Assembly: GCA_000934665.2 (NCBI GenBank)
Contig: JYFJ02002518.1
Location: 1 to 55,542 of the forward strand
Length of the DNA stretch: 55,542 nt
Source of the DNA: Catajapyx aquilonaris
Lineage: Eukaryota
Direction of reading: 5' to 3'
Shown: positions 6,999-35,473 of the stretch, in pieces
Position numbering within the stretch: position 1 is the first letter of the stretch
Layout: every line of letters starts with the position of its first letter
Notes under the pieces: model-generated
Told to the model about the DNA's origin: nothing
Databases searched by the model: none
What the model saw: only the letters and a program-made list of their open reading frames with translations
Translations under genes and position numbers: made by a program

Positions 6999-7241
6999 CA
7001 GGGTACATGGTTCGAAAATTTAACCTACCGTGGCTTTGGGAAATGTTAGAGGGGTTCTAGGCGATCACTTTGAGTATATGCAACATGATTGGGTCTCCGA
7101 CGCATAATGTGAATCAAACACAAGGTATAAAATATCCTGACACGTATGCGTCGGAGACCCATGTTGCATATACTCAAAGTGATCGTCTAGAACCCCTCTA
7201 TCATTTCCCAAAGCCACGGTTGGTTAAATTTCCGAACCCTG
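6999..7241. mobile_element. Palindromic Tc1/mariner-type MITE
   Basis: Roughly 100-bp inverted arms (CAGGGT..AAATTTAACC.ACCGTGGCTTTGGGAAATG..), TA flanks. Confidence 0.8.
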
Positions 7242-7314
7242 TATATCCTACATTATTTTACATATACTGCAGCCATAAAGCATGCAGAAGATCCAGATAT
7301 GAGATGAGACGTAC

Positions 7315-11540: not shown

Positions 11541-13665
11541 TCAATTCTTCGCCCTTTCTTGTGGAGGTATCACAAAGACAGAGTAGGAAAGAGACTTGGC
11601 TGTCAACAGGCTGTAGCTGTTGTCAAATACGACAGCATCTATGGAGAATAAGCGATATTATTTAATAATTCAGCTTGATGGGAGATACTCGAATGTGGTC
11701 CAACTTACACTTTCCAACTTGCAGTGGTCCAGTTTGGCTTTCAATTGAGGAGATATGACTTTCAACTCGTGAGTAGGGAACCACTTCCACCAATCTGCCT
11801 CCTTCACTCCGGTACACTGCGAAGCCAATATCGTAGTCGTCTGTCTCAAAGGCCCAACTGAAACAAAGGAATCGTTGTTGCCTCAACACACATTTGAGGC
11901 AATCTCCTACTCACCTAAGCTGGGAACAGACTTCTTTTATGTGATACTCGACCTGTAAAGATCCTCCCTTTTCCACAGTCACCGACCTCTCATACTCCCC
12001 TTGGGACAGGGTGCTTTTGTTCTTCAGATAATATTTCTTGGGTACTTTTCCACCCTTAGGACACTGAAATGCATTAGTGTGCATCATGGGATATGCCGAA
12101 TTTTAAAGTGCACTTTGCACTAACTTTTGATGGGCACATTGGATCTCCATCGGAATCGACCATGGTACCACCCCAGTGCTTCGGTACCTGGTCTGCATCG
12201 ATCAGTTCCAGTATGGCCGGAACCCACTTGGACTTGTCAGTGCCATACACCACTATTTTACTTTTCGTGGCTTCGCTCATGAGAGGCTTCAACAAGTTGT
12301 AAATTGTTGTAAACACCCATGAAGCTGTATTTTTATATAAAAATCAACATGACTACATTAATAGTTTAACAAAATCTGGGAAAATATTGGCCAAAAGCAG
12401 AGATATATCATGTGCTGAAGCCATAGCCGTACAGGCAAGATTTTATAATTTACATGCAGCAATCAAGTAAGATACTGACTGTAAACTCACCATTGACAAC
12501 AAAACCTTTTTTCAACGTTTCCGGGTAGTTGTTTTCATGTACAGCGACATACGCTCTGAATATGCTCTGCGCTGTATGTAAAGAGAAGAAACAAAGTGAG
12601 TTTTAAGGCTAAATAATTAATTGCAATGTCATTAATAAAAATGTAGATAACTCCTTAGTGACTATCAACAGGGACAGTTGTCTATATGGTCCGTCAAAAT
12701 AATAATTATAGAACAACACCCCATGAATAGCAGACAGGTACAGCACAGCGCACAGGGCATCCAACCTTACCATCCCTAGATAGAGCATGTTTCCATGACC
12801 AATCTTCTGCGTCACAGATCACGATGTGGTTATGTATGTATCGTCCTAATTTATCACTCTGCTTGGCCATATCTCTTAGGCTGGATTCTAATATGTGGGC
12901 GCAATTTTTAATCAATTCTTCTCTGGTCGCTGATCGATGCATTCCTGGGATGTCCAGCTTTGCGATATTAAAGATCCACACTGAAAATATTGTGTATCAA
13001 TACATGTAAATACACAGTGACTATAACAGTATCGTATTAAATCACATGCTGTTGCATACCAGGACTGCCTTCTTTGTCGTAACTCACTAGACCTGCCGGA
13101 TAGTACTTTTTAAATACTTCTGGTCGTTCCCATTTGTCTAGTAACGTGTCACATTCCTGTGACTTCCTCCATGCCATTGACTGCATGTGACAATAAAAGG
13201 TGTTCAATATATGATTGTTGTCCCTTCAGTTTCACTTAATGCAACAAAAAATATATTCTTCCTGAAGTCATTCAGTGGATGTGCAGATCTTTGGTGAGTA
13301 AGTAATTGTAATGGTAATGGTAATAGCAAGAAATGGGAATATTCTACTCACATCACGGTACATTTTTGCAGCTTTCTTGGGGTCATAGTCTCTGGCTGAA
13401 ATAAGTGAATATCGACATCACAATGCTCTGTACCTACAATTATTGTTTGCACTCACCTTTCAACCACTGAAGAAGATATAGGTCGTGATGCGTTGGTTGG
13501 ACGACGTCGCCTGCTAGTAATCTAAACTGCAATTAGTGACGTTAATTGTTACTAAAGTGTTATTTGTCAGTGAAACCAATTAAGTAAAACGAGGGCAAAA
13601 CAACAACAACAACAACAACAACATACCTTTTCCAGAGCTTCCTTATGCAGTTCTATTTCCGTCAT
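11541..13665 (-). CDS. SEC14-like protein copy 4
   Basis: Exon 1 MTEIELHKEALEK (13627-13665). 10 GT-AG exons with motifs [34 protein letters not shown] and FDNSYS. Stop TGA at 11541-11543. Confidence 0.9.
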
Positions 13666-14844
13666 TGTTGTGAAATGGAGGGGGGCAGGCTGGGCAGAGT
13701 ATATTTGTGCTTTTTTGGAAGAGGAATGATCTGTCCTTTGTCCCAACCTATTGGACTCTCCTTGGGCATATCCATCTATCGTGTGTTTGATATTAAGTTA
13801 ACAATCGTAAGCAGCCTTGACAACTTATCAGCACCAGATTAAACGTTATGTAAGAACTTGGCTTGCTCATTTTGACTGCAAATTCATGCGAGTGTTGATC
13901 AAATGAAATGCGATTTATTTTTTGTAGCATCATATTATTATGTATATTGTAATAAGCATGTATCAATATTATCGGTCATATTTTACCACATAACCAGTTC
14001 AACACACTTGCACCCCTTTATCGACAACATACTTTATTCTTAATTTACAAATTTTTCGTATAATTTGCATAGTTTTCGGCCATCAAGATGTCCTTTCATT
14101 GGTCCGAAAATGTGACAGTTGGCATCATGTCTGGCGAATATGAAGGATGACGGGCACTCCAGATCCAGATCCCATTGTTGCACGTGCGCAGGACAGGGCA
14201 TCGTTACACAGAAGGACAACTCATTGGTCTAAAGTCAGCGATGTTTCCTTCTGATATCCGGGATCAGACGGTGGCACTATATGTCTGCACATGTGACACT
14301 GCTCACTGCAATCCTTTTGCTGGGCCTATAACTGAATATTTTTGTTGCCCTAGAAAAACAGTCGGCATATCTTTCTCAGAAAACGCTTGGACGCGGAATT
14401 TTTTACTTAGGATGCCTTTTATTTTACATCACTTGTAGATAAGCTGCATATCCCATCTATGCTGTAGTTTATATTTTTAATGACCCTTAAAATGTTCTAG
14501 TGTGTGGTCAATAATAAGCAGCTACGTGCAAAAAAACACTCAATGAATACGACATTGAAACTTATTGCATTATAAAATCGGGATACAGTAAATGTACTCC
14601 AAACTCTATATTATTTAACTGAATTTAAGGAAACTAGCTACTCATTCCTGTTATAACTTAATCAGAAATTATCTCCTCACAGTAGAAAAATTTGTGCAGT
14701 TATTTTCGCTTTAACTAAAAATTGTCGGAAATTACAAGATCTGAAAATATGTTTCATTGCATGGCCTATAGTCCTATACAATCCCATTATCTATTGGACT
14801 ATAAGTAACATCAGCATACAGTTTTCATTCTCAGCTAAATAATG

Positions 14845-18375: not shown

Positions 18376-20518
18376 CTACGCCGTTTCATGTGGAGGGATC
18401 ACAAAGACAGAGTAGGAAAGAGACTTGGCAGTCAGCAGACTGTAGCTGTTGTCAAATACGACAGCATCTATATGGAGAATAAGCGATATCATTTAATAAT
18501 TCAGCTTGATGGGAGAGACTCGAATGAGGTCCAACTTACACTTTCCAACTTGGAGTGGTCCTGTTTGGCTTTCAATTGAGGAGATGTGACTTTCGACTCG
18601 TGAGTAGGGAACCACTTCCACCAAGCTGTCTCCTTCACACCGGTACACTGCGAATCCAATATCGTAGTCGTCTGTCTCAAAGGCCCAACTGAAACAAAGG
18701 AATCATTGTTGCCTCAACACACATTTGAGGCAATCTCCTACTCACCTAAGCTGGGAACAGACTTCTTTTATGTGATACTCGACCTGTAAAGATCCTCCCT
18801 TTTCCACAGTCACTGACCTCTCATACTCCCCTTGAGCCATGGTACTTTTGTTCTTCAGGTAATATTTCTTGGGTACTTTTCCACCCTTAGCACACTGAAA
18901 ATGTAATAGTGTAAGAATTAGCAAGTGATCTGCTGCATTTTAAGTGTGTTTTGCACTAACTTTAGATGGGCACATTGGATCTCCATCGGAGTCGACCATG
19001 GTACCGCCCCAGTGCTTCGGTATCTGGTCTGCATCGATCAGTTCCAGTATGGCTGGAACCCATTTGGACTTGTCAGTCCCATAGACCACTATTTTCCTCT
19101 TTGTGGCTTCGCTCATAAGAGGCTTCAACAAGTTGTAAATTGTTGTAACCACCCATGACGCTGTAGTTATTAAAAATCATCAATCATTGTAATATCTTGA
19201 TGAGACCACAGGCTTCTATACAGACAACATTTCATCATTTACCTGAGGCAATCAAGCAAGATATACGGTAACAAGCTCTTGACGGTAACTGTATGTGATT
19301 CGAGTCAGTTATTTAAAAATCGAGGCTCTAGTTCATTTCGAGTAAAATATTAGGTTTCGTTGAGATTATTACTCCAATGACAAATATAGGCAGTAATAAT
19401 AATTAAAAAGTAAACTTACCATTGACAACAACAATTTTTTTCAGCATTTCTGGGTAGTTACTTTCTTGTACAGTGATATACGTTTTGAACATTCGCTGCG
19501 CTGTATATGCAAATTACATAAGAAATTGCGTGAATTCTTAGGCTTATAACAGTATGCAACATCATAACAACAAATCTTACCATCCCTAGATAGCGCATTT
19601 TTCCAATCCCACTCTTCTGTGTCACAGATCACTGTGTGATTATGTATGTATCGTCCTAATTTATCACTCTGCTTGGCCATGGCTCTTAGGCTTACTTCTG
19701 ATAAGTAGATGCTGTGTTTCATAAGTTCTTCTGTGGTCGCTGAATGGTGCAACCCTGGGATGTCCAACTTTGACATATGTATAATCCACACTAAGAGAAA
19801 ATAATGCATATCATACACAGTGGCTGTAACAGTGTCCTATTGAATCACACGCTGTTGCATACCAGGGCTGCCTTCTTTGTCGTTACCAACCAGACCCATC
19901 GGGTAGTATTTTTGTAGCACTTCTGGCAGTTCCCATTCGTCCACTAAGGTGTCACATTTCTGCGATTTTCTCCACAACATCGACTACACGTGACAAAATT
20001 CATTATCATTTGTTTATCTCCCTTTTGAACGCTTAACGTTATAAAATAATTCTTCATAAATCCATTTAGTGGATGTGGTCTCTGGTCGATGTATAGCATA
20101 GCAAGAAATGTGGAAAATTCTACTCACATCACGAAACATTTTTGCAGCTTTTTTGGGGTCATAGTCTCTGGCTGAAATAAATATTAATATCTATGTATGA
20201 ATGCAGTGTACCTAAAGTTATTACCACATTTACCTTTCAACCACTGTAGAAGAAATAGGTCATGGTGCGTTGGTTGGATGAAGTCTTCCACTAGCAATTT
20301 AAACTGCAATAAATGACGGTAGTAGTTGTTACTAAAATGTAATTCGTCAGAAATAAGTAATACAGGAGTAGTAAATTATTTTGCAGCATTGTTGGCTTGG
20401 TTGCTCTCTTCGTTGAAAAAAAATATGCATGAGTAATAACTAATATATTAGAAAACAAGTAAATAATAGCAATGTTTACCTTTTCCAAAGCCCCCTTATG
20501 CTGTTCTATTTTCGCCAT
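18376..20518 (-). CDS. SEC14-like protein copy 6
   Basis: Exon 1 MAKIEQHKGALEK; motifs QESNYPEMLK and [16 protein letters not shown] exons. Stop TAG at 18376-18378. Confidence 0.9.
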
Positions 20519-20714
20519 TGCTGTGAAATGGAGGGCTTGTTGGGCTGTGAATATCTGCCGAGATATTAACACTTTTTTGGAAGAGAAACTGCAAGCATGC
20601 ATCTTGTACCATGATAACATACGCAATATCTCTTGGCAATATGTCAGGAGATTAAACAAAATTATGTAAGGATTTCCGAATGCTCCATATTTTCTCCAAA
20701 ACATAATTAAACAA

Positions 20715-20737
20715 TCTAATGCATATTTCTCAACGTA

Positions 20738-20770
<33 letters not shown>

Positions 20771-21180
20771 GATCACGATGCAAATCCATATGGAGGCCTC
20801 GACATATGCCCCGGGGAATGATTAAGGGTACGTAGTTTTTTTACTGAGAAGGTCATAAGCACATTGGACTTGACCTCCGAGGTCATCCTTGGCCGCAGGA
20901 GGCGAAAAGGACTTTGGCACATTGGCCCGCTTTCTAATCATGCACAATGGGGGTGTAAACAACTTCTCTGTTCAGTTGCCGGGGAAACTGTCCATTCGTT
21001 CTCTGGCGGCCGAAAGGGTCACATCGCCCTCTCCCCACTGCCACCTCCAGCCCCTCCATTCCATTCCTGCCAGCAAAGCCCCCCCCTCCCCCCTACCCAG
21101 CAACTCCTCCATCCGCCCCCAGCATGATATTCATGATATGTGAACTTTGAGCAAGACTTTGAGTATACGCATTAAACTAC
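20715..21180 (+). mobile_element. Non-autonomous Helitron-like element with (TGTC)n; 3' end approximate
   Basis: A|TCTAATGCATATTTC start, (TGTC)n, then GGAGGCCTCGACATATGCCCC. A second copy starts at 55449. Confidence 0.55.
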
Positions 21181-21229
21181 CGGTATGTATAGTTTATTTT
21201 TCACATTCCGTAATATAGGTAACATGGCT

Positions 21230-21506
21230 GTGACATAGTGTTCGGAACACTTTTACAAGTTTCACAGTTTATCTACACCAAGCCTATTCCTCAGTATGCT
21301 CCATATGAGCCCAAGAGTAGAAAAAACGCGCTCAATTGAAGCTGAGCTGCAGGGACCATCCAAAAGCTTCTGCAGAAAAGTGCAGAAATGAGATTCAAGT
21401 TTCTCATTTGTCGCTGTCTGCATGATAAAACGAAACATAAAATTGCCAGAAAAAAACCAAAAAAACCCAATAAAACCCGTGTGGGTTGGTTTAAAAAAAA
21501 ACCCTG
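21230..21506 (-). mobile_element. hAT-derived remnant with transposase dimerisation-domain fragment
   Basis: 21423-21241 translates PCSSASIERVFSTLGLIWSILRNRLGVDK (hAT C-terminal SERxFS motif, one frameshift). Terminus CAGGGTTTTTTTTTAAACCAACCC at 21506. Confidence 0.7.
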
Positions 21507-21539
21507 TAGTAGCTTACAAAATCACACTGTGTTGCTTAC

Positions 21540-21664
21540 CAGGGCAGGGCCTTCCTTGTCGTAACCCACCAGACCAGAAGTATACTTTTTGAACACTTCT
21601 TGGTCGTCCCCATTTGTCTACTACATTTGTCTACACATTCCTGTAACTTCCTTCACGCCATTGA
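21540..21664 (-). pseudogene. SEC14 copy 7 remnant (degenerate exon 4 of the copy 4/5/6 subfamily)
   Basis: Aligns by eye to exon 4 of copy 4 (about 13060-13160), including both splice flanks. Carries W->TGA and indels; no other exons found. Confidence 0.8.
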
Positions 21665-21683
21665 CTGCAAGTGAGAAAGAATA

Positions 21684-22828
21684 CTACCATACCCCAGTAG
21701 CTCTAGCAAGCACCAATAGTGAAATTATTGAAAAAAATGCTGGAATGCCAATCACAATTCCCTTTATGGCACTGCCAGCCGGTTCTTGGGGAGGTGCAGC
21801 TTCTGAAGATATTTTTATATAATAGGTTCGAAATCCAAACTCATTGGTCACGTCCATTTGGAACTGGCTGTTCAGATCGCTCTCTTCCACTGGATCCAAT
21901 GTCAAATGCATTTCATACACACTGTGCCCCTTGCTATGTGGCCTGCAGGATGAGATCCTTTCGTCCGGTGTCCGTGCACGATTTTTCATCTGCTCTCCAT
22001 TAGGGAGGGTCCAGACAACATTTGAAACTGGGTTGGAGGTCACGTTGACACGTATGGTCCCAATCTGGCCATTTATGAACCCATACTTTGTTGTTGTTTG
22101 CTCATTCCAAGGTTGAGGGGGAAAGTTGACCAGGATCTGAACTTGGGCGACGAAGTTCGCATCAGCAACACATTTCAGGTACAGTACCTCTCATTGTCAT
22201 CTGGGTTGAAGTAGCCAGAGAAGTTCTGAGTAGTCATGTAGCCTTGGTTATTACCAAGGGGCACAGTCACTACTTCGCGCAGCCTGTCACCAATCACTGG
22301 GTAGTCATCAATGTACCAGGAGAGTTTTGCAGGCCTATCTCCATACACTTCACATCCAATGTGTGCCTTGTTTCGCCGGCTGTCCAAGTTGGTCACTTCA
22401 AGGGGACCCTTCTGGGTGAAGGAGATGGCCTGAGGCTTCTCCAGGACGTAGAAACTGATATCAGCCGACAGGGGAAATGTTCCCTGAGGAATACCCTGGC
22501 ATGTCCAGTTGCCATTGTCCCTCTCTGAGACCTTGACGATCTGAACTCCGCAAAAGCCTTGTTTGTTCTTCCCCGCCTGTCTGTACCCCGGTGGAGGGGC
22601 TATGGGTATGTACTGATGGGTCTTGAAGGTCTGGCCATTGGGACCCTGTAGGTAGCAAGTCAGCAGTGGCATGTTGGCTTGGCACACAATCAGTGCCGAT
22701 GAGCCTGTCTGGGCATACACAGGGTTTGTGATGTTTATCCATCTTGCCTGTTGTGCTACTGTGCTGGTAAAAGTGCAGAAGAGGTACAGCAGCCTGGCCG
22801 CCCTCGCTGCACATCCGTTGTTCCCCAT
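21684..22828 (-). pseudogene. Intronless fasciclin-3-like Ig-domain transmembrane ORF with one frameshift
   Basis: Signal-peptide-like start, three Ig-like domains (DNGNWTC; C..RPAKLSWYIDD..C; VTSNP...W..N.FG), and a TM segment ending LVLARATGVW, like the Fas3 juxtamembrane region. The listed ORFs 22175-22846 and 21684-22043 join into about 380 aa if 5 nt of the TACAGTA at 22180-22186 are removed. Confidence 0.8.
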
Positions 22829-23773
22829 GGTCGGGTGTGTTCCCACAAATTTAAAAAAAAAACTCCACTATGAAAAATCCCATGGACACAAGGCACAGTA
22901 CTGTAAACGGCTGAGTAGTGGCCAAATGTAAATTGGCCTTGTCGTCCTTGTTGCTATGTGCCATGCCTTCCATTACACAACACAGAGTAATCACCAATCA
23001 GCCTGGACAACTTATCAGAACCAGATAATTATAAAACATTATGTAAGAATTCGAACCCATCCATAATTTTACTACAAAGTATATACAAAGTATGTGGGAC
23101 TGATAAAATTATGTACTGTACGAGGATCATAAAGCGTATGAGTTGTATAGATGTGAGATGGATAATATTATCTGCATCATATGTCCTAGCAATCAGCTCT
23201 ATATGATTAAATAATTGCATTGCATTGTAGACACATTCTCTGCTGTCATTTATTTGTGAATTATATTGTAACATTTATACTGTACATTTTGATCCCAACA
23301 CCACCTGTTTCTTACCTACAGCACATATTTTATGTCAAGATGATCATTATCATCACTGTGCAATTCCCAATTTTTGTGCGGTGCTGCTTATATTTAAGGA
23401 ACTACTTTCAAAGAATCACTTTGAGGAGTGATGATATTAACTGATAATATTATAGATTAAGTACAATAATAATTCATTCATGTCTTGTTTTGGAGTGACT
23501 TTTCAAGCCTGAGTTATTTTCAGTGATTTACTTAAAATCAGTTAATGGTTAAACCCATTTTATTACAGACTAGACCCTACTATACGTATTATAAATACAC
23601 GCATATTTTGACCAATGTTACCGACTAATATTCTTGGTCACTCCTAAAACAGTTCTATAGCATGCTTAGTAATTGTAAGCAGCTCAGTACAAAAAAAATC
23701 GCTAACTAAGAAGACATTCTGGAATCGGGACACAATTAATACCTTCCAACACTCTATACAGTTGTAATTATAA

Positions 23774-26101
23774 TCAGTTCAGTGGAATTTGACACTTATT
23801 CGTGTGGTCATCAGAAATCACTTCCACTGAGTAGCACAGATTCTTGCTCCTAATTTTGCTGTAGCTATTGTCAAATATCACGATATCTGAAAATAATATA
23901 TTGGTTGAGCAAGTATTGTTATCATTCTGTTGCAATAATGCAGGACTTACATGTTCCTAAAGCCAATGGTTGGGTTTCTCCTTCTATGAGACACATATGG
24001 CTGTCGACCCTGGAGTAAGGCACAATTTCTTCCCATTCCTCTTGACATTTCCGCTGAATTGCAAAAGCAATGTCATGATTCTCAGTCTGGAACTCCCATC
24101 TGAAACGTTTAAAATAATAGGTTACGATAGCATACTGCTTATTGTACACTTGTACACTCACCTTAGTCGTGAGTTAATCTCAGTTATCTGAAATTCTACT
24201 TCATGGCAGTTTCCACTCTTAATTGACACCATGTTGAGCAAATCTCCTTCCTTCGCTTTGTTGTCCAGGTAGTATGATTCTGGCACTTTGCCTCCCAAAT
24301 TGATCTGGAAAAAAAGGATTTTTGAAATATCATAAGTTTTTTTTAACGATGTGGCTGTTTCTAATGCGACATCGACATGTCACACTCACCATTGATGGAC
24401 ACATGGGATTGCCATCTGGATCCACCATATTTCCTCCCCAGTGTTTGGGCAGCTGATCTGGATCTACTAATTCCAGAATGGCTGGCAACCATTTGGATCT
24501 ATCCGAATCATACACTTCAATCTTCTGTCTAGTCGAATCACTCAACAAGTTCTTAAACACATTGTAGATGAATGTGAAGTATCCAGGAGCTGTCATGATG
24601 TAAAATTAATATACAGTATTAACCCAATGTTACTGCATCTGCTATATTTTATTGCTCATCTTATTAACGATTATTATATTTCTTATTAATATTTTATGGA
24701 TGTTATAATGAGCCCTGACAACACTTACCATTCACTGTCAAAACTTTCTTTAACGTCTCTGGATAATTTTCTTCGTAGAGCTTGTATAAGCGAAGCGTCT
24801 CTTTTTGGGCTGTAATGAGAAGTACGAGTATTACTATTTATTTACTATATTATTATTATTTATTAAAGAGTTCATGAACGAGTAGTTACATAGCATCAGA
24901 TAGCATGTACCAAAAGAGATTTGAAGAGCACATACCTTGACGACAGAGTGAATCTTTCAAAGAGAGACCTTCCATGTCAATAATGACAACTTGCTGATGA
25001 ACAAAACTTCCTCGAAGTTGGCTCTGCCTGGCCATTTCCTGCCTGCTTGTCTCCATGTTGAGGACAGCGGTCTTGGTCAGGTCACTTGTAGTGACCGAGT
25101 TCAATAGCCCCATCATATCTGCTCTCCCAAATGGCATTATCCACACTGAGCATAAGAAAGGAGGCATCATTTGAATGAAATATTATACCAAGCTAAGCTC
25201 ATAGTCATATCATAATAATTGAACTCGGTGTGATGTCGGAGATTAAATTTTTGCCATAATTCGGCAAGAAGAATTCGTCAAATGTACTCCATTACACCTT
25301 GCCATCTGCATAGTACCTGGGCAACCTGTTTTGTCCACTCCAGGCATTCCTCTTGGGGAATACTTCGAAACGGCTTCAGGAGGTGTCCACGACTCCACTA
25401 TTTGATCAGCTCCTATTTTGCTTCTCCAAGCCATAGACTGTAATAAAAACAACGTCATGAATACTTTATGAAAGCCTTCAGTAGGATTATAGACGATATG
25501 TGTACTGACCTTACGCAACATATTCTCAGCCTTTTGTGGGTCATAATCTCTGGCTGAAAAAGAAATTATGAATGAGATTATGTATAGCCCTGGAGCAATA
25601 TGAGGTCACACGATTCGAGGTGACAATTAGGCTTATCTTTCTTATTCCACTTCTGAAGTAGCCTAGTACTGAGTTACTTTACAAAGCATGATTCTTCGTT
25701 GACTCTAATACGAGAATCGTAGAAAACAAAGTTATTTCTGAATGCAAGCATTTTAAAAATGCAAAAACGAAAGGTGCAGCACACCATAATATACAAGTTC
25801 CATAACACACAGTTCTAATAATATACATATCTTATCTTAGGATTACTCATGTCTGAGTAATTAATTACTATACTGCGCGCAGCAATTAATACGTCACAAT
25901 CCTCGTGAGTATTGCGTAAATTGCCTCTCACAGCATATGTAATGCTCGTCAGGATTATGCTCACAAGCAGCGTATAAATCATCGTAATATTGGCGTAGAT
26001 CAAAAGTTGCCCGCCAAACCTACCTTTCAGCCACTGCAACAAATAACAGTCGTCATCAATGGGCTTCTCGACATCCGCCACAGCCTCTCGAAACTAGATG
26101 A

Positions 26102-27888: not shown

Positions 27889-29139
27889 CGAGGCGCATCC
27901 AGAAAGTAAGGTCCATTTTTTAATTAGAAAAACCACAATGCACCCCAGAATTTTTATTTACACATCTGAAATAGGCAACTGTATACTTTTTTCAAAAATA
28001 GTTTCCAGCCAAATCGAGGCATTTTTCATTGAGTTACACACGATTTTGTATGCCTATGTCATAGGAGTCTGCCGCAAGCTATTTCCGCGACCCCTGAACG
28101 CTGGATTGCAATTCTTCTTCATTGTCAACATTATGCTTTGCAAGCCATTTCTTTCTGTCAATGGACAGGTAGTAATCGCTAGGCTCCAAATCACAAGTGA
28201 TCAAACAATTCTCACTTGAATTGTTGCAGCATGGTTCCAGCACGTAAAGACAGTAGGCAGACGGGCATTGTCCGAGGGTCTGTCGGCAATATTATACCGA
28301 TACGTTCCTTATTAATGGCCATCCTTATCTTCTGTACCCCTTTTGGATTGATCAAACGTAGCGTTGAGTTTCGTGGTGTTTTCTTGCGCGACAGTGCCTG
28401 TCTGCCTAGTGCCTTGCGTATACTGGAACCATGCCCCAACAATATATTCAAATGTGAATTGTTAGATCACCCGGGCAAGGCTGCACCCGGGATTTAGAGC
28501 CTAGCAATAATGACCACCTGTAAATGGACAGGAAGAAATGGCTTGCAAAGCAGAATGTTGACGATGACGAGGAATTGCATTCCAGCGTTCAGGGGTCGCG
28601 AAAATGACTTCTATGACATAAACATACAAAATATTGGGGAGGTGCGGTGGCAGAGATGGCTTGCTGTGTGAAAGGTCCCAGGTTCGACCCCCGCCTGGGA
28701 GTTCCCTTTCACCTGCGTCGGGAGGGTCTCTGACCCGTACCTTGGAGGTGTCTGGCAACCTAACCTCCTGGGGGACATGCACATGGCTCAAACTTGAGAC
28801 ATTGCACCTGCACCTATACGTTCCCTCCCCAAAAATCCCTACCCTTACCCAATGTCCTTGATTTCCCTGCACCGGAGTTGAATAAAAACCAAAAATAATT
28901 AAGAAAATATGGTGGTATCCCACCTCCCCTAAAAGAGCCACAGGCTCTATCACAGGGTAGAAGAAGAAGACATACAAAATCGTGTGTAACTCAATGAAAA
29001 ATGCCTCGATTTGGCTGGAAACTATTTTGCAAAAATTTAGACAGTTGTCGATTTCAGATGTGTAAAAATAAAAATTCTGGGGGTGCATTGGAATTTGTCT
29101 AATTTAAAAAAACGGAACTTACTTTCTGGATGCGCCTCG
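27889..29139. mobile_element. Mariner-derived foldback element (two inverted transposase 3' halves)
   Basis: TIR CGAGGCGCATCCAGAAAGTAAG with TA TSD. Both arms translate outward to a degenerate mariner C-terminus, e.g. DLEPSDYYL..KKWL..EEL..LAADSYDIGIQ..EKCLDLAGNYF. Confidence 0.88.
28633..28969 (+). mobile_element. tRNA-derived SINE inside the right arm of the mariner foldback
   Basis: A/B boxes (GGTTCGACCCC), (AAG)n tail and 11-bp TSD ACATACAAAAT. The left arm shows the empty site. Confidence 0.85.
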
Positions 29140-30539: not shown

Positions 30540-32330
30540 TATGGTTTTCTGAACTGGGTGGTGTAGTATTTCAATAGTGTAGTGCACATTAGCTTAGTTC
30601 TCAGTTTGCTTTTCACAGTGAAATGAGCTCACATGCCAATGTGGCTTTCTGAACTGGGTGGAAGCATACTTCCTCCTCAGTTTGCTGTAGCTGTTATCGA
30701 ATATTACCACACTGCGAAAAGAAAGGAACTGACATATCTTGTAATGTAAGAAAAATGCGCGTGAAATATTTCATAGCTAGCAAAAAATGCAAGGTCGTGG
30801 TTTTTTTACAATGTGAGGAAAAGATTTGCGAGAAAACATCTGTTGTATTTCATCACATGTGTTGCATCAGTGCAATGGAAGAAATGATGAAATCTTAAAC
30901 ATAATTATCTACTAATCATGAAATTACATGCTTAGAAGCATGGCAACACGTGCCAATTGTTGTCTCAACCTTGGTTATCATTTTCAATGATATATCACCA
31001 ACAGGGATGGAAAAAGAACCGCTTCCTCCCAAAGAAGCGGTTCTTTTTCCATCCATGATCACCAACGTCTGACTTAAAAGATGGATTCTGATAACTTTTG
31101 TAGAGACAAAGGGCACACGAATAGTACCACTTACATTTTCCTTCTTCCAGAGAGTGCGTCTGACCCCGTACCGTGGTATCGCAACAATCCAGAAGAGTGC
31201 AGGGAAGCACTTCTTGCCTATCATTGTTTCCATCTATACTGAATATGCCAAAAGCGATGTCGTATCCTTCTGTTCGAATCTTCCAGCTGACATTCGGAGC
31301 ATGGCAGTTAATTTTGGCATATTATTTGCGTCATCAACATTTACCTTATTTTCGAACCAGATTGAGCAATGTACACATCCACTTCCAATTTATCACCACT
31401 TTTAATTGTAGCTGCCTCCATTAGCTTGTCATTTACACCTGTCTTCTTGCTAGACATGTAGTAGGACTCGGGGATTACCCCTCCCAGGTTAACCTTCAAT
31501 GGAAGAAAAATGTACTTACTGGCAGGATTAAATGTACTCTCATAATAGTGATTATTACCTTGGATGGGCATTTGGGGTCTCCATCTGGATCCACCATCGT
31601 TCCTCCCCAGTGTTTGGGCAGCTGGTCAGCATCTATGAATTCCAATATGGCCGGAACCCACTTGGTTCGGTCCGAATCATACACGGAGATCTAGCTTCTT
31701 GTGTATTCATTCATGAAATTCTTCCAGATATTAAACAAAAATGCAAAGAACCGTGGAGCTAAATAAGATATTTAATGTAGTTTTCATGGGTACTCCGAGC
31801 AGTGAGTGGAATTACCTGGGCATCCTTCCTTGTCAACACCAGGCAGACCTAATGGGATGTACTTGCCAAGCACTTCCGGACACATCCATGATTCAATAAG
31901 ATCATCGGGTCCTATTTTCTCTCTCCACGCCATGGACTGCATAAAATTGTACATAGAAATTAAAAGATAAGCTATACAATATTTCCGAAATATTTTTGAA
32001 AGGCACGCACCTGTCGCAGCATGTCCTCTGACTTCCGGAGGTCGATATTCCTTGATAGAAAATATTTCGGCGCATTTTTAAAAAACAGTAATGGCAATGG
32101 GGAGACACAGAAACTCTAGAGCGTATAGTGAATAATGGGTCATACTAAATTTTAACCACTGCAATAAGTACTCGTCCTGTTCACATGGTTTCTTCAGTTT
32201 CTTGACATCAGACACTGCCTTACGAAACTGAAAACAATAATATCCGGCTTGCTTATTCAAGGTAACTGTACTGCTGGAGTAGAGGATTACCTCTGTCAAA
32301 ATTATCCATTTGTTTGTTGCTCAATTCCAT
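30540..32330 (-). pseudogene. SEC14 copy 9 pseudogene (close relative of copy 10)
   Basis: Exon 1 has +1 nt; the exon 2 donor and exon 3 acceptor are lost; exons 5-6 are deleted; exon 10 has a 1-nt loss, an internal deletion and a partial duplicate at 30540-30610. Exons 7-9 and their introns are nearly identical to copy 10. Confidence 0.85.
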
Positions 32331-33251: not shown

Positions 33252-35473
33252 TCACATGTCAGTATGGTTTTCTGAACTGGGTGGAAGCACTTCAATAGAG
33301 TAGTGCACATACTTCCTCCTCAGTTTGCTGTAGCTGTTATCGAATATTACCACATCTGCGAAAAGAAAGGAACTTACATACCTATCATGTAATGTAAGAA
33401 AAATGCGCGTGAAATATTTCATAGTTAGCAAAAAATGCAAGGTCGTGGTTTTTACAATCTTATGAAAAGATTTGCGAAAAAACCTCTGCCGTATTTTCAT
33501 CACATGTGTTGCATCAGTGCAATGGAAGAAATGATGAAATCTTAAACATAATCATCTACTGATCATGAAATTACATGGTTAGAGGCATGGCAGCACGTGG
33601 CAATTGTCTCAATTTTGGATATAATTTTCAAATAATATATCACCAACGCCTGACTTAAAAAGATGGATTACAATATATTCATCTGGTAACATTGCTGGCG
33701 ACCCGATCAAGTAACACACGAATGGCAAGAGCCCCACTTACATTTTCCTTCGTCCAGAGAGTGCGTCTGACCCCGTACCGTGGTATCGCAACAATCCAGA
33801 AGAGTGCAGGGAAGCACTTCTTGCCTATCATTGTTTCCATCCATACTGAATATGCCAAAAGCGATGTCGTATCCTTCTGTTCGAATCTTCCAGCTGACAT
33901 TCGGAGCAGGGCAGTTAATTTTGGCATATTATTTGGGACATCAACATTTACCTTATTTTCGAACCAGATTGAGCAATGTACACATCCACTTCCAATTTAT
34001 CACCACTTTTTATTGTAGCTGCCTCCATTAGCTTGCCATTTTCATCTGTCTTCTTGCTAGACATGTAGTAGGACTCGGGGATTACCCCTCCCAGGTTAAC
34101 CTTCAATGGAAGAAATGTACTTATACTGACAGGATTTAATGTACTCTCATAATAGTGATTATTACAATGGATGGGCATTTGGGGTCCCCATCTGGATCCA
34201 CCATCGTTCCTCCCCAGTGCTTGGGCAACTGATCTGGATCTACGAATTCCAATATGGCCGGAACCCACTTGGTTCGGTCCGAATCATACACGGAGATCTT
34301 GCTCCTTGTGTATTCATTCATGAAATGCTTCCAGATATTAAACAAAAATGCAAAAAACCGTGGAGCTAAATCAGAAATTTAATGTATTTTTCATGAGCAG
34401 TAAGGGGAATTAATACTGGCACTAAAATCCAACAATAAATAATAATCAGCTACTCACCATTTATTACAATGACTTTTTTCATTATCTCCGGATAATTATC
34501 TTCACATACCCTGATAAGCTTCTTCAGCAGGTACAAAGCTGGCAAAATTAAACATGGATCTATCTTACAAAAACATATCAAAGTTGCTATTTAATATATT
34601 GCAAGGGCACTCATAACAGTAGCCTACCTGGAGGATACGTCGCATTTCGAAATGAAAAGCACTCTAAATCAACGATTGGCACAGTCTGACCAACAAACTT
34701 TCCACGCAGCTTGCTCTGTCTAGCCATTTCCAATCGACCGATCTCCACGTTTTTAGCACTAAAGGTAACAATATCATCTACGGGGCACGATTTCAGTAAT
34801 CCTATCATATCCAGTATCCCGGTAGGAATAATGAACACTGGAAACATCACAGATTAGCTTTCATAATATTATGCAGAAATAACAAGCCATTTTTATATCT
34901 CCATATTGCAGACGCTCTTGTGGATTCTTGAGGTATTTACCTGGGCATCCTTCCTTGTCAATACCAGTGACACCTAATGGGATGTACTTGCTAAGCACTT
35001 CTGGACACACCCATGATTCAATGAGGTCATCGGCTCCTATTTTCTCTCTCCAGGCCATGGACTGCATAAAATTATTGTACATGGAAATTAAAAGATAAGC
35101 TATACAATATTTCCGAAATATTTTTGAAAGTCACGCACCTGTCGCAGCATATCCTCTGACTTCTGGAGGTCGAAATTCCTTGCTAGAAAATATCTAGGTG
35201 CTCATTAAAGAAAAACTAATCCGGGCAATGGGGAGTTACCCTGTACCCTGTACAATGTACATATAGTGAAACTCAAACACTTAGAGTGGGATAGAATCAT
35301 ACTACCTCTTAACCATTGCAATAAGTACTCGTCATGTTCACAAGGTTTCTTGACATCACATACTGCCTTGCGAAACTGAAAACAATAATATCAGCTTCGT
35401 TTATAAGTAACTGAATTGGACTTGTAAGGATTACCTCTGCCAGGATATCCTTTTGTTTGGCTCCCAATTCCAT
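33252..35473 (-). CDS. SEC14-like protein copy 10
   Basis: Exon 1 MELGAKQKDILAE. All 10 exons are in frame ([45 protein letters not shown]). Stop TGA at 33252-33254. Confidence 0.88.

Follow-up and report, generated by a model that had tools for sequence, protein, structure and literature searches.

A probable processed and truncated fasciclin-3-family pseudogene within a dead SEC14 paralog of Catajapyx aquilonaris

A reading frame for an immunoglobulin (Ig) domain protein on the minus strand of contig JYFJ02002518.1 of Catajapyx aquilonaris (55,542 nt, the whole stretch being referred to below as the window) is probably a processed, truncated pseudogene of a fasciclin-3-family gene that lies within a dead SEC14 paralog. 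A second version of the sequence, present in the same genome at another locus, is expressed and contains one intron or more. The window copy is predicted to make no working adhesion protein and its position behind a SEC14 upstream element would be a by-product of the landing site. Capture of the SEC14 promoter is considered unlikely, and neither a period of selection nor a role as a decoy was supported.

Organisation of the locus

The window holds a tandem array of SEC14-like (CRAL-TRIO plus GOLD) genes on the minus strand, and repeat families made up of exon pieces recurred 13 times in a repeat search. Frames of the array matched CRAL_TRIO and GOLD_2 in Pfam, with the copies neighbouring the Ig frame matching PF00650 and PF13897. 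A Pfam scan of 57 of the 88 frames of at least 85 aa, the other 31 having been scanned earlier or being mostly antisense-overlapping, returned CRAL_TRIO and GOLD_2 alone and no reverse transcriptase or transposase, and an Rfam search of 20400-24200 returned nothing at E <= 0.1. The features of the region, in the order in which they are read on the minus strand, were as follows.

From about 23790: last exons of SEC14 copy 7, the array neighbour on one side of the Ig-frame stretch
22996..23049, minus strand: SEC14-type upstream element, matched by BLAST to 13809-13856 and alignable with the sequence that precedes copies 4, 5 and 6
22829..22932, minus strand: putative 5' untranslated part of the copied fasciclin-3 mRNA; RNA and second-version contigs fit up to 22932
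22184..22828, minus strand: frame A, with start codon, predicted signal peptide, Ig1 and most of Ig2; ends D-N-E-R-Y
22179..22183, minus strand: frame-breaking extra letters between R-Y and L-K-C-V
22123..22124, minus strand: site of the 558 extra letters of the parent; the window has no intron here
21687..22178, minus strand: frame B, with the end of Ig2, Ig3, a linker and a predicted membrane helix; ends A-R-A-T-G-V-W
About 21696-21773, minus strand: predicted membrane helix within frame B
21684..21686, minus strand: stop codon TAG, at the conserved juxtamembrane Cys of the family; marks the end of the copied cDNA
21665..21683, minus strand: filler at the junction, then the final ~13 nt of SEC14 intron 3, including the acceptor
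21540..21664, minus strand: decayed SEC14 exon 4, 72-78.6% identity to exon 4 of copies 4-6
21508..21539, minus strand: start of SEC14 intron 4; SEC14 likeness stops at 21508
21265..21513, minus strand: remnant of a hAT transposase C-terminal dimerisation domain (PF05699, E 0.0018, 18.5 bits, below the cut-off of 21.4)
20781..21161, no strand assigned: high-copy repeat occupying the expected place of SEC14 exons 5 onward
20150-20530: 5' exons of SEC14 copy 6, the array neighbour on the other side

The original prediction had placed an upstream element, an intron-less Ig frame and a SEC14 exon 4 in that order on the minus strand, and this arrangement was recovered. The upstream element matched the region upstream of copy 4 (22996-23049 against 13809-13856) by BLAST at 79.6% identity over 54 columns (E 1.7e-7), so the proposed likeness to the copy 4/5 upstream region was significant. 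A four-way alignment located the element upstream of copies 5 and 6 as well, with 46 invariant columns. In copy 4 the end of the element lies 143 nt ahead of the ATG (13665-13663), and in the Ig-bearing copy it lies 167 nt ahead of the Ig ATG (22828-22826). From 22996 down to the junction at 22932 the columns resembling SEC14 upstream sequence were weak and unconvincing, and the element would be the sole remnant of the 5' flank of this array member.

On the other side of the Ig frame, 21508-21677 matched the exon 4 region, borders included, of copies 4, 5 and 6 by BLAST at 72-78.6% identity (E 8e-31, 2e-32 and 4e-16, respectively). The exon was damaged by a change of TGG to TGA and by indels of +4, +1, -3 and +2, and its acceptor stands close behind the Ig stop as had been described, the separation being 19 nt. 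SEC14 exons 1-3 and 5 onward were absent from the array member holding the Ig frame; a BLAST comparison of 20800-24300 with the window found no other SEC14 exon of this copy within 20800-23700, which upheld the earlier report that exons 1-3 were missing. Of the full exon set that encodes CRAL_TRIO and GOLD, exon 4 with its borders persists alongside the upstream element, and this array member is a dead SEC14 paralog.

The Ig frame was also more GC-rich than its surroundings, as first noted, with a GC fraction of 0.499 relative to 0.401 for the window and 0.43-0.45 for the SEC14 exons.

Membership of the fasciclin-3 family

When the five letters at 22179-22183 are skipped, frames A and B form a run of 379 codons with no stop. 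The frame is a member of the fasciclin-3 family, its predicted product comprising a signal peptide followed by three Ig domains and a single membrane helix. FasIII is described as a homophilic adhesion protein that spans the membrane and carries its Ig domains on the outside of the cell (PMC3915571).

A search of the N-terminal half against 1.84 billion representative proteins returned 71 proteins at E <= 0.001, none of which exceeded 35% identity, and the parent protein is thus absent from the searched collection. Ten of the 71 were looked up and were colinear, single-stretch matches from their own N-terminus; those named among the ten included the fasciclin-3 proteins of Lygus, Coccinella and Arctopsyche, a 'nephrin-like' protein of Artemia and two hypothetical insect proteins. 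A word-indexed protein search of each half against longer proteins returned nothing at E <= 0.001. For the C-terminal half, the fasciclin-3 group alone matched among 81 stored proteins, colinearly and to the last residue. The best phmmer match of this half, to the relative P0064, was at 2.8e-21 when scaled to a library size of 1.8e9, and frame B matched the same relative by BLASTP at 9e-31 with 34% identity, again reaching the last residue.

The two halves abut on the relatives with which they align. At Y224 of P0064, D-N-E-R-Y of the window faces D-N-G-K-Y224 and Y-L-K-C-V faces Y224-L-R-C-V, and against Coccinella fasciclin-3 residues 35-210 of the N-terminal half correspond to 36-211 and residues 17-167 of the C-terminal half to 233-382. 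In an alignment of ten sequences (nine relatives and the window frame) ten columns were invariant, five of them Cys (G41, C48, C57, P62, C92, G93, G105, C109, C158 and P165); they include the four Cys of Ig1, a C-G pair, the Cys of Ig2 and Pro columns. The fasciclin-3 likeness put forward at the outset was therefore confirmed, in that both halves are colinear with insect fasciclin-3 proteins up to the juxtamembrane motif. A protein atlas placed a 'fasciclin-3-like' arthropod cluster at rank 2, with a score of 0.95 and 196 of 256 features.

Domain and structure comparisons returned Ig domains. Frame A matched Pfam Ig_3 at E 1.7e-5 (25.7 bits, under the cut-off of 30) and a titin Ig domain among PDB sequences at 8.3e-10. 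For the C-terminal half, AlphaFold predicted a beta sandwich at residues 43-126 followed by a helix of 26 residues at 139-164 (pLDDT 82.8), and the best PDB matches of this model in Foldseek were the Ig domains of DIP and titin. When six fasciclin-3-like proteins were compared with the window by tblastn, no further piece of fasciclin-3 turned up, the other matches being two at chance level (E 0.066 and 0.78).

The window copy thus resembles insect fasciclin-3 in its signal peptide, three Ig domains, single membrane helix and colinearity, and it retains the Cys, Gly and Pro residues that are invariant in the family, along with the greater part of the A-R-A-T-G-R-W-C-F motif. It differs in having an identity of only 21-35%, a shifted frame, no H-I-A-L segment, a stop at the conserved Cys and no cytoplasmic tail.

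An expressed, intron-containing parent gene

Contigs from public sequencing runs were compared with the window over 20400-24200. Three were DNA runs (X1, X2 and X4) from one sample, which was probably the source of the assembly, and the fourth (X5) was an RNA-like run from a different sample and study. X5 behaves as RNA because its contig for SEC14 copy 7 skips 23887-23950 and 24100-24161, both GT..AG introns on the minus strand.

Contigs of the three DNA runs were identical to the window over the frame, for example with 0 differences at 21995-22236. The same runs also contained a second, single-copy version that differed in about 7.5% of its letters. In X1, the depth of the window version was 32.6-36.5 and that of the second version 25.1-33.8, relative to 34-37 in single-copy flanks. 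The summed depth of both versions is about twice that of the flanks, which indicates two loci, and an allelic origin of the second version was rejected on this basis.

An 816-letter contig, present in each of the DNA runs, fits 21995-22123 and 22124-22236 of the window with 558 letters in between. This site, in phase 1 at the border of Ig2 and Ig3, splits the Phe codon of V-N-F-P-P-Q-P after its first base. A 1349-letter contig of X5 covers 21693-22860, where it has 88 other letters and 31 gap letters, as well as 22883-22932; it crosses 22123/22124 with the 558 letters removed, so these letters are an intron. This contig carried the letter of the second version at all 33 of the listed in-frame sites. 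The second version is therefore an expressed gene, with one or more introns, located elsewhere in the same genome, and it supplies the intron-containing parent that had been proposed as a check. The reading of the Ig frame as an intron-less retrocopy was likewise borne out, as the window is without the 558-letter intron of this expressed parent. Second-version contigs are short and a single parental intron is visible in them.

Parent-like sequence spans from about 21687/21693 to 22932, and the RNA contig is unlike the window at both ends. In the 5' direction, the parent version has 53 other letters in place of 22861-22882, the joint from 22860 to 22883 being found in all four runs, and 37 letters of the X5 contig beyond 22932 are unlike the window. 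In the 3' direction, the contig runs 16 loose letters past 21693, which we read in frame as R-W-C-F-K, the juxtamembrane motif of the family. No X5 contig carried the window's own letters over the Ig frame, in a comparison of assembled contigs, which drop rare variants, and 22940-23066 was uncovered by X5 contigs.

Decay of the window copy

The Ig frame had been credited with only one lesion. This was too kind, since a frameshift, the loss of about seven codons after C-V-A-D and a stop inside a conserved motif were all identified. The frameshift at 22179-22183 amounts to +5 letters, or +2 if the second Tyr is kept, and the predicted protein P0001 ends at the match of Y224 in P0064 while P0002 restarts at Y224. 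A small intron at this site was rejected as it would delete the conserved Y-x-C segment. An assembly error was also rejected, as the site is covered by 0-difference contigs in the three DNA runs of one sample and these independent contigs agree.

Where relatives carry H-I-A-L with an invariant His after C-V in Ig2, the window has a gap of 5-7 residues after C-V-A-D. Over 22124-22236 the parent contig exceeds the window by 16 letters, a surplus that would fit +5 and -21 letters. The window also has a Ser in place of the Pro of A-N-P-x-P, a Pro that is present in the parent and in 7 of 7 relatives. The family continues from A-R-A-T-G-R-W-C-F into a cytoplasmic tail, and the window reads A-R-A-T-G-V-W and then stops at the conserved Cys codon with the tail missing entirely. 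As the parent RNA continues in frame at this point, the missing tail is a truncation. The suggestion of a tailless adhesion protein or decoy was accordingly not supported.

The parent is known through its differences from the window, of which 33 in-frame ones are listed out of at least 88. These 33 comprised 22 non-synonymous and 7 synonymous codons and fell on codon positions as 13/11/9. The dN/dS comparison with the parent that had been proposed yielded a crude omega of 0.93 from these readable differences, which are 33 of at least 88, the site numbers being 877.7 (non-synonymous) and 259.3 (synonymous). Two V>A changes at conserved hydrophobic positions were on the parent's side, and the sample of differences is hence small and mixed. 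The parent itself does not appear, from these changes, to be obviously under tight constraint.

These data bear on an alternative that we consider unlikely, in which the retrocopy took over a SEC14 promoter, was expressed as a tail-less fasciclin-3 for adhesion or as a decoy, and was selected until it broke. Its sense orientation would suit such a role, as would its place 167 nt behind a SEC14-type element that stands 143 nt ahead of the ATG in copy 4. Low-depth X5 contigs identical to the window lie just downstream (21180-21458 and 21481-21651), and the 379 codons have no stop made by substitution despite a divergence of about 7.5% from the parent. Random changes, however, leave the frame free of stops with a probability of 0.19 at 44 changes and 3% at 88. 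The absence of substitution-made stops therefore needs no selection. The claim that the copy stayed under selection was left unsupported by this expectation (0.19 after about 44 neutral changes) and by the crude omega and the spread over codon positions given above. Further points against promoter capture are that the protein end is a truncation inside a conserved motif and not a designed end, that a conserved Ig2 segment is missing, and that the reading frame is not intact, with the frameshift found in the three DNA runs as well.

Origin of the copy and its flanks

For the processed pseudogene, the following course of events is plausible. A fragment of about 1.24 kb, running from ~105 nt of 5' UTR through the sequences for the signal peptide and the three Ig domains to the membrane helix, would have been reverse-transcribed from the fasciclin-3 mRNA. 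This cDNA would have entered the 5' region of a SEC14 copy in sense orientation, through retroposition or because a cDNA fragment was captured during the repair of a DNA break. A single deletion, at or after the insertion, may have taken the 3' part of the cDNA (tail, 3' UTR and poly(A)) together with SEC14 exons 1-3, stopping about 13 nt short of exon 4. Later transposon insertions and a further deletion would have eliminated exons 5 onward.

No poly(A) tract or target-site duplication was found around the window copy, SEC14 intron sequence being reached 19 nt past the stop, and the fragment is cut at both ends, a form that simple LINE-mediated retroposition does not produce. A GT stands at the start of 21692-21687, directly after the last well-aligned codon, and the window copy might therefore retain the first letters of a parental intron, in which case its template would have been partly spliced.

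The hAT remnant adjoins the end of the SEC14 remnant, 170 nt downstream of the Ig frame, and is repeated in the genome, with a DNA depth of 65-520 relative to about 34 in the flanks. The summed contig depth of the high-copy repeat reached 25,848 in X1 where single-copy flanks were at 34-37. Within this downstream stretch, X5 included low-depth contigs identical to the window at 21180-21458 and 21481-21651.

It is quite unlikely that the window copy arose as a DNA-level duplicate of the fasciclin-3 gene that later lost its intron or introns, or that the window copy is the older one and the other version gained 558 letters. The lack of a poly(A) tract and of a target-site duplication fits such a duplicate, and the GT after the last well-aligned codon could be intron sequence. 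Phase-1 introns at Ig domain borders are seen in other Ig-superfamily genes. The 558 letters are at a phase-1 Ig domain border and are removed in the RNA-like run, which marks them as an intron, and exact intron loss from a DNA duplicate is much rarer than retroposition; all of this goes against the duplicate.

A chimeric gene, in which the SEC14 upstream region, the fasciclin-3 ectodomain with its membrane helix and SEC14 exon 4 onward were joined before decay, is very unlikely. If it had existed it would have been a membrane-anchored CRAL-TRIO/GOLD lipid-binding protein. A GT (21692-21691) comes directly after the last well-aligned Ig codon, which ends in phase 0, and SEC14 exon 4 starts in that phase too, both of which would allow such a product. 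The two sites are, however, 28 nt apart relative to the 62-64 nt introns that are spliced at this locus, and exons 5 onward are gone.

Delivery by a transposon or virus with a host-derived adhesion gene, the other origin raised in the original prediction, is scarcely credible and was not supported: the hAT remnant 170 nt downstream and the GC content above the surroundings could be cited for it, but the SEC14 exon 4 remnant stands between the Ig frame and the hAT piece, none of the 25 inverted-repeat pairs reported in the window brackets the Ig frame, no viral relative was confirmed in viral_contigs (2 pattern matches, both unconfirmed), and a cellular, spliced, single-copy parent accounts for the frame.

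Comparison with known systems

The window copy shares with processed pseudogenes the absence of an intron relative to its parent, a part of the parental 5' UTR, a single-copy state, a frameshift, a deletion and near-neutral change, with an expressed parent located elsewhere in the genome. It differs from them in being without a poly(A) tail or target-site duplication and in being truncated at the 3' as well as the 5' end.

The jingwei gene of Drosophila is reportedly a retrocopy inside a duplicated copy of another gene, behind the 5' region of that gene, and is said to be intact, expressed and under selection. The likeness lies in a sense-oriented retrocopy within a duplicated gene and behind the 5' region of its host. 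Unlike jingwei, the window copy is broken and sits in a dead host copy, and the X5 contigs included no transcript of the window version.

In a study of one aphid genome, 491 retrocopies were reported, of which 170 were classed as pseudogenes and 163 as fused with other genes (PMC13049721). Broken retrocopies, or retrocopies inside other genes, are thus common in insects.

For annotation, the locus should be labelled not as a gene but as a processed pseudogene of fasciclin-3 within a dead SEC14 paralog, and it matters little otherwise. The genome's real fasciclin-3 gene, which is expressed and has one intron or more, lies at another place. The locus illustrates the replacement of the first three exons of a tandem-array member by a cDNA fragment that is truncated at each end, and the insertion could serve as a dated marker when the array is compared across related species.

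Repeats and inverted matches

A very high-copy repeat comes after a microsatellite in the region 20729-21161.

~20729-20777, (GACA)n-type microsatellite

The summed DNA contig depth within the high-copy repeat peaked at 25,848 compared with the single-copy level of approximately 34-37 in the flanks, which implies that hundreds of copies are present in the genome, and the repeat had no match in either Rfam or Pfam. The region 21162-21542 has the appearance of nested repeats and includes a remnant of a hAT dimerisation domain. In copies elsewhere in the genome position 21220 was joined to 21461, or 21217 to 21423, with the intervening piece absent in each case, and DNA depth reached up to approximately 500 at 21416-21542.

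Long inverted pairs separated by 17-18 kb were located at 36364-36515/54134-54285 and 35793-35930/54450-54586. One inverted match covered 152 nt at 97%, with others at 84-95%, and those 17-18 kb apart probably represent a single mobile element present twice, with one copy inverted relative to the other. Additional hairpin-like pairs were at 27951-29072 and 7004-7243.

The SEC14 array

Copy 7 of the tandem SEC14-like genes (23134-24200) was expressed according to a contig of X5, a run behaving as RNA. This contig of 1271 letters was identical to the window and lacked two very short introns, 23887-23950 (64 nt) and 24100-24161 (62 nt), which had been removed. It extended as far as 23134, which leaves just 85 nt to the dead copy's upstream element; this dead copy is the decayed array member that holds the fasciclin-3 processed pseudogene.

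In copy 4 the first coding exon encodes M-T-E-I-E-L-H-K-E-A-L-E-K and is directly followed by a (GTT)n run (13600-13630), with which intron 1 opens.

Two adjacent SEC14 copies shared 97% identity over 300 nt (31120-31419 and 33727-34026, spaced by 2607 nt), and 30665-30711 was exactly identical to 33308-33354. These matches indicate that the array underwent duplication or gene conversion very recently.
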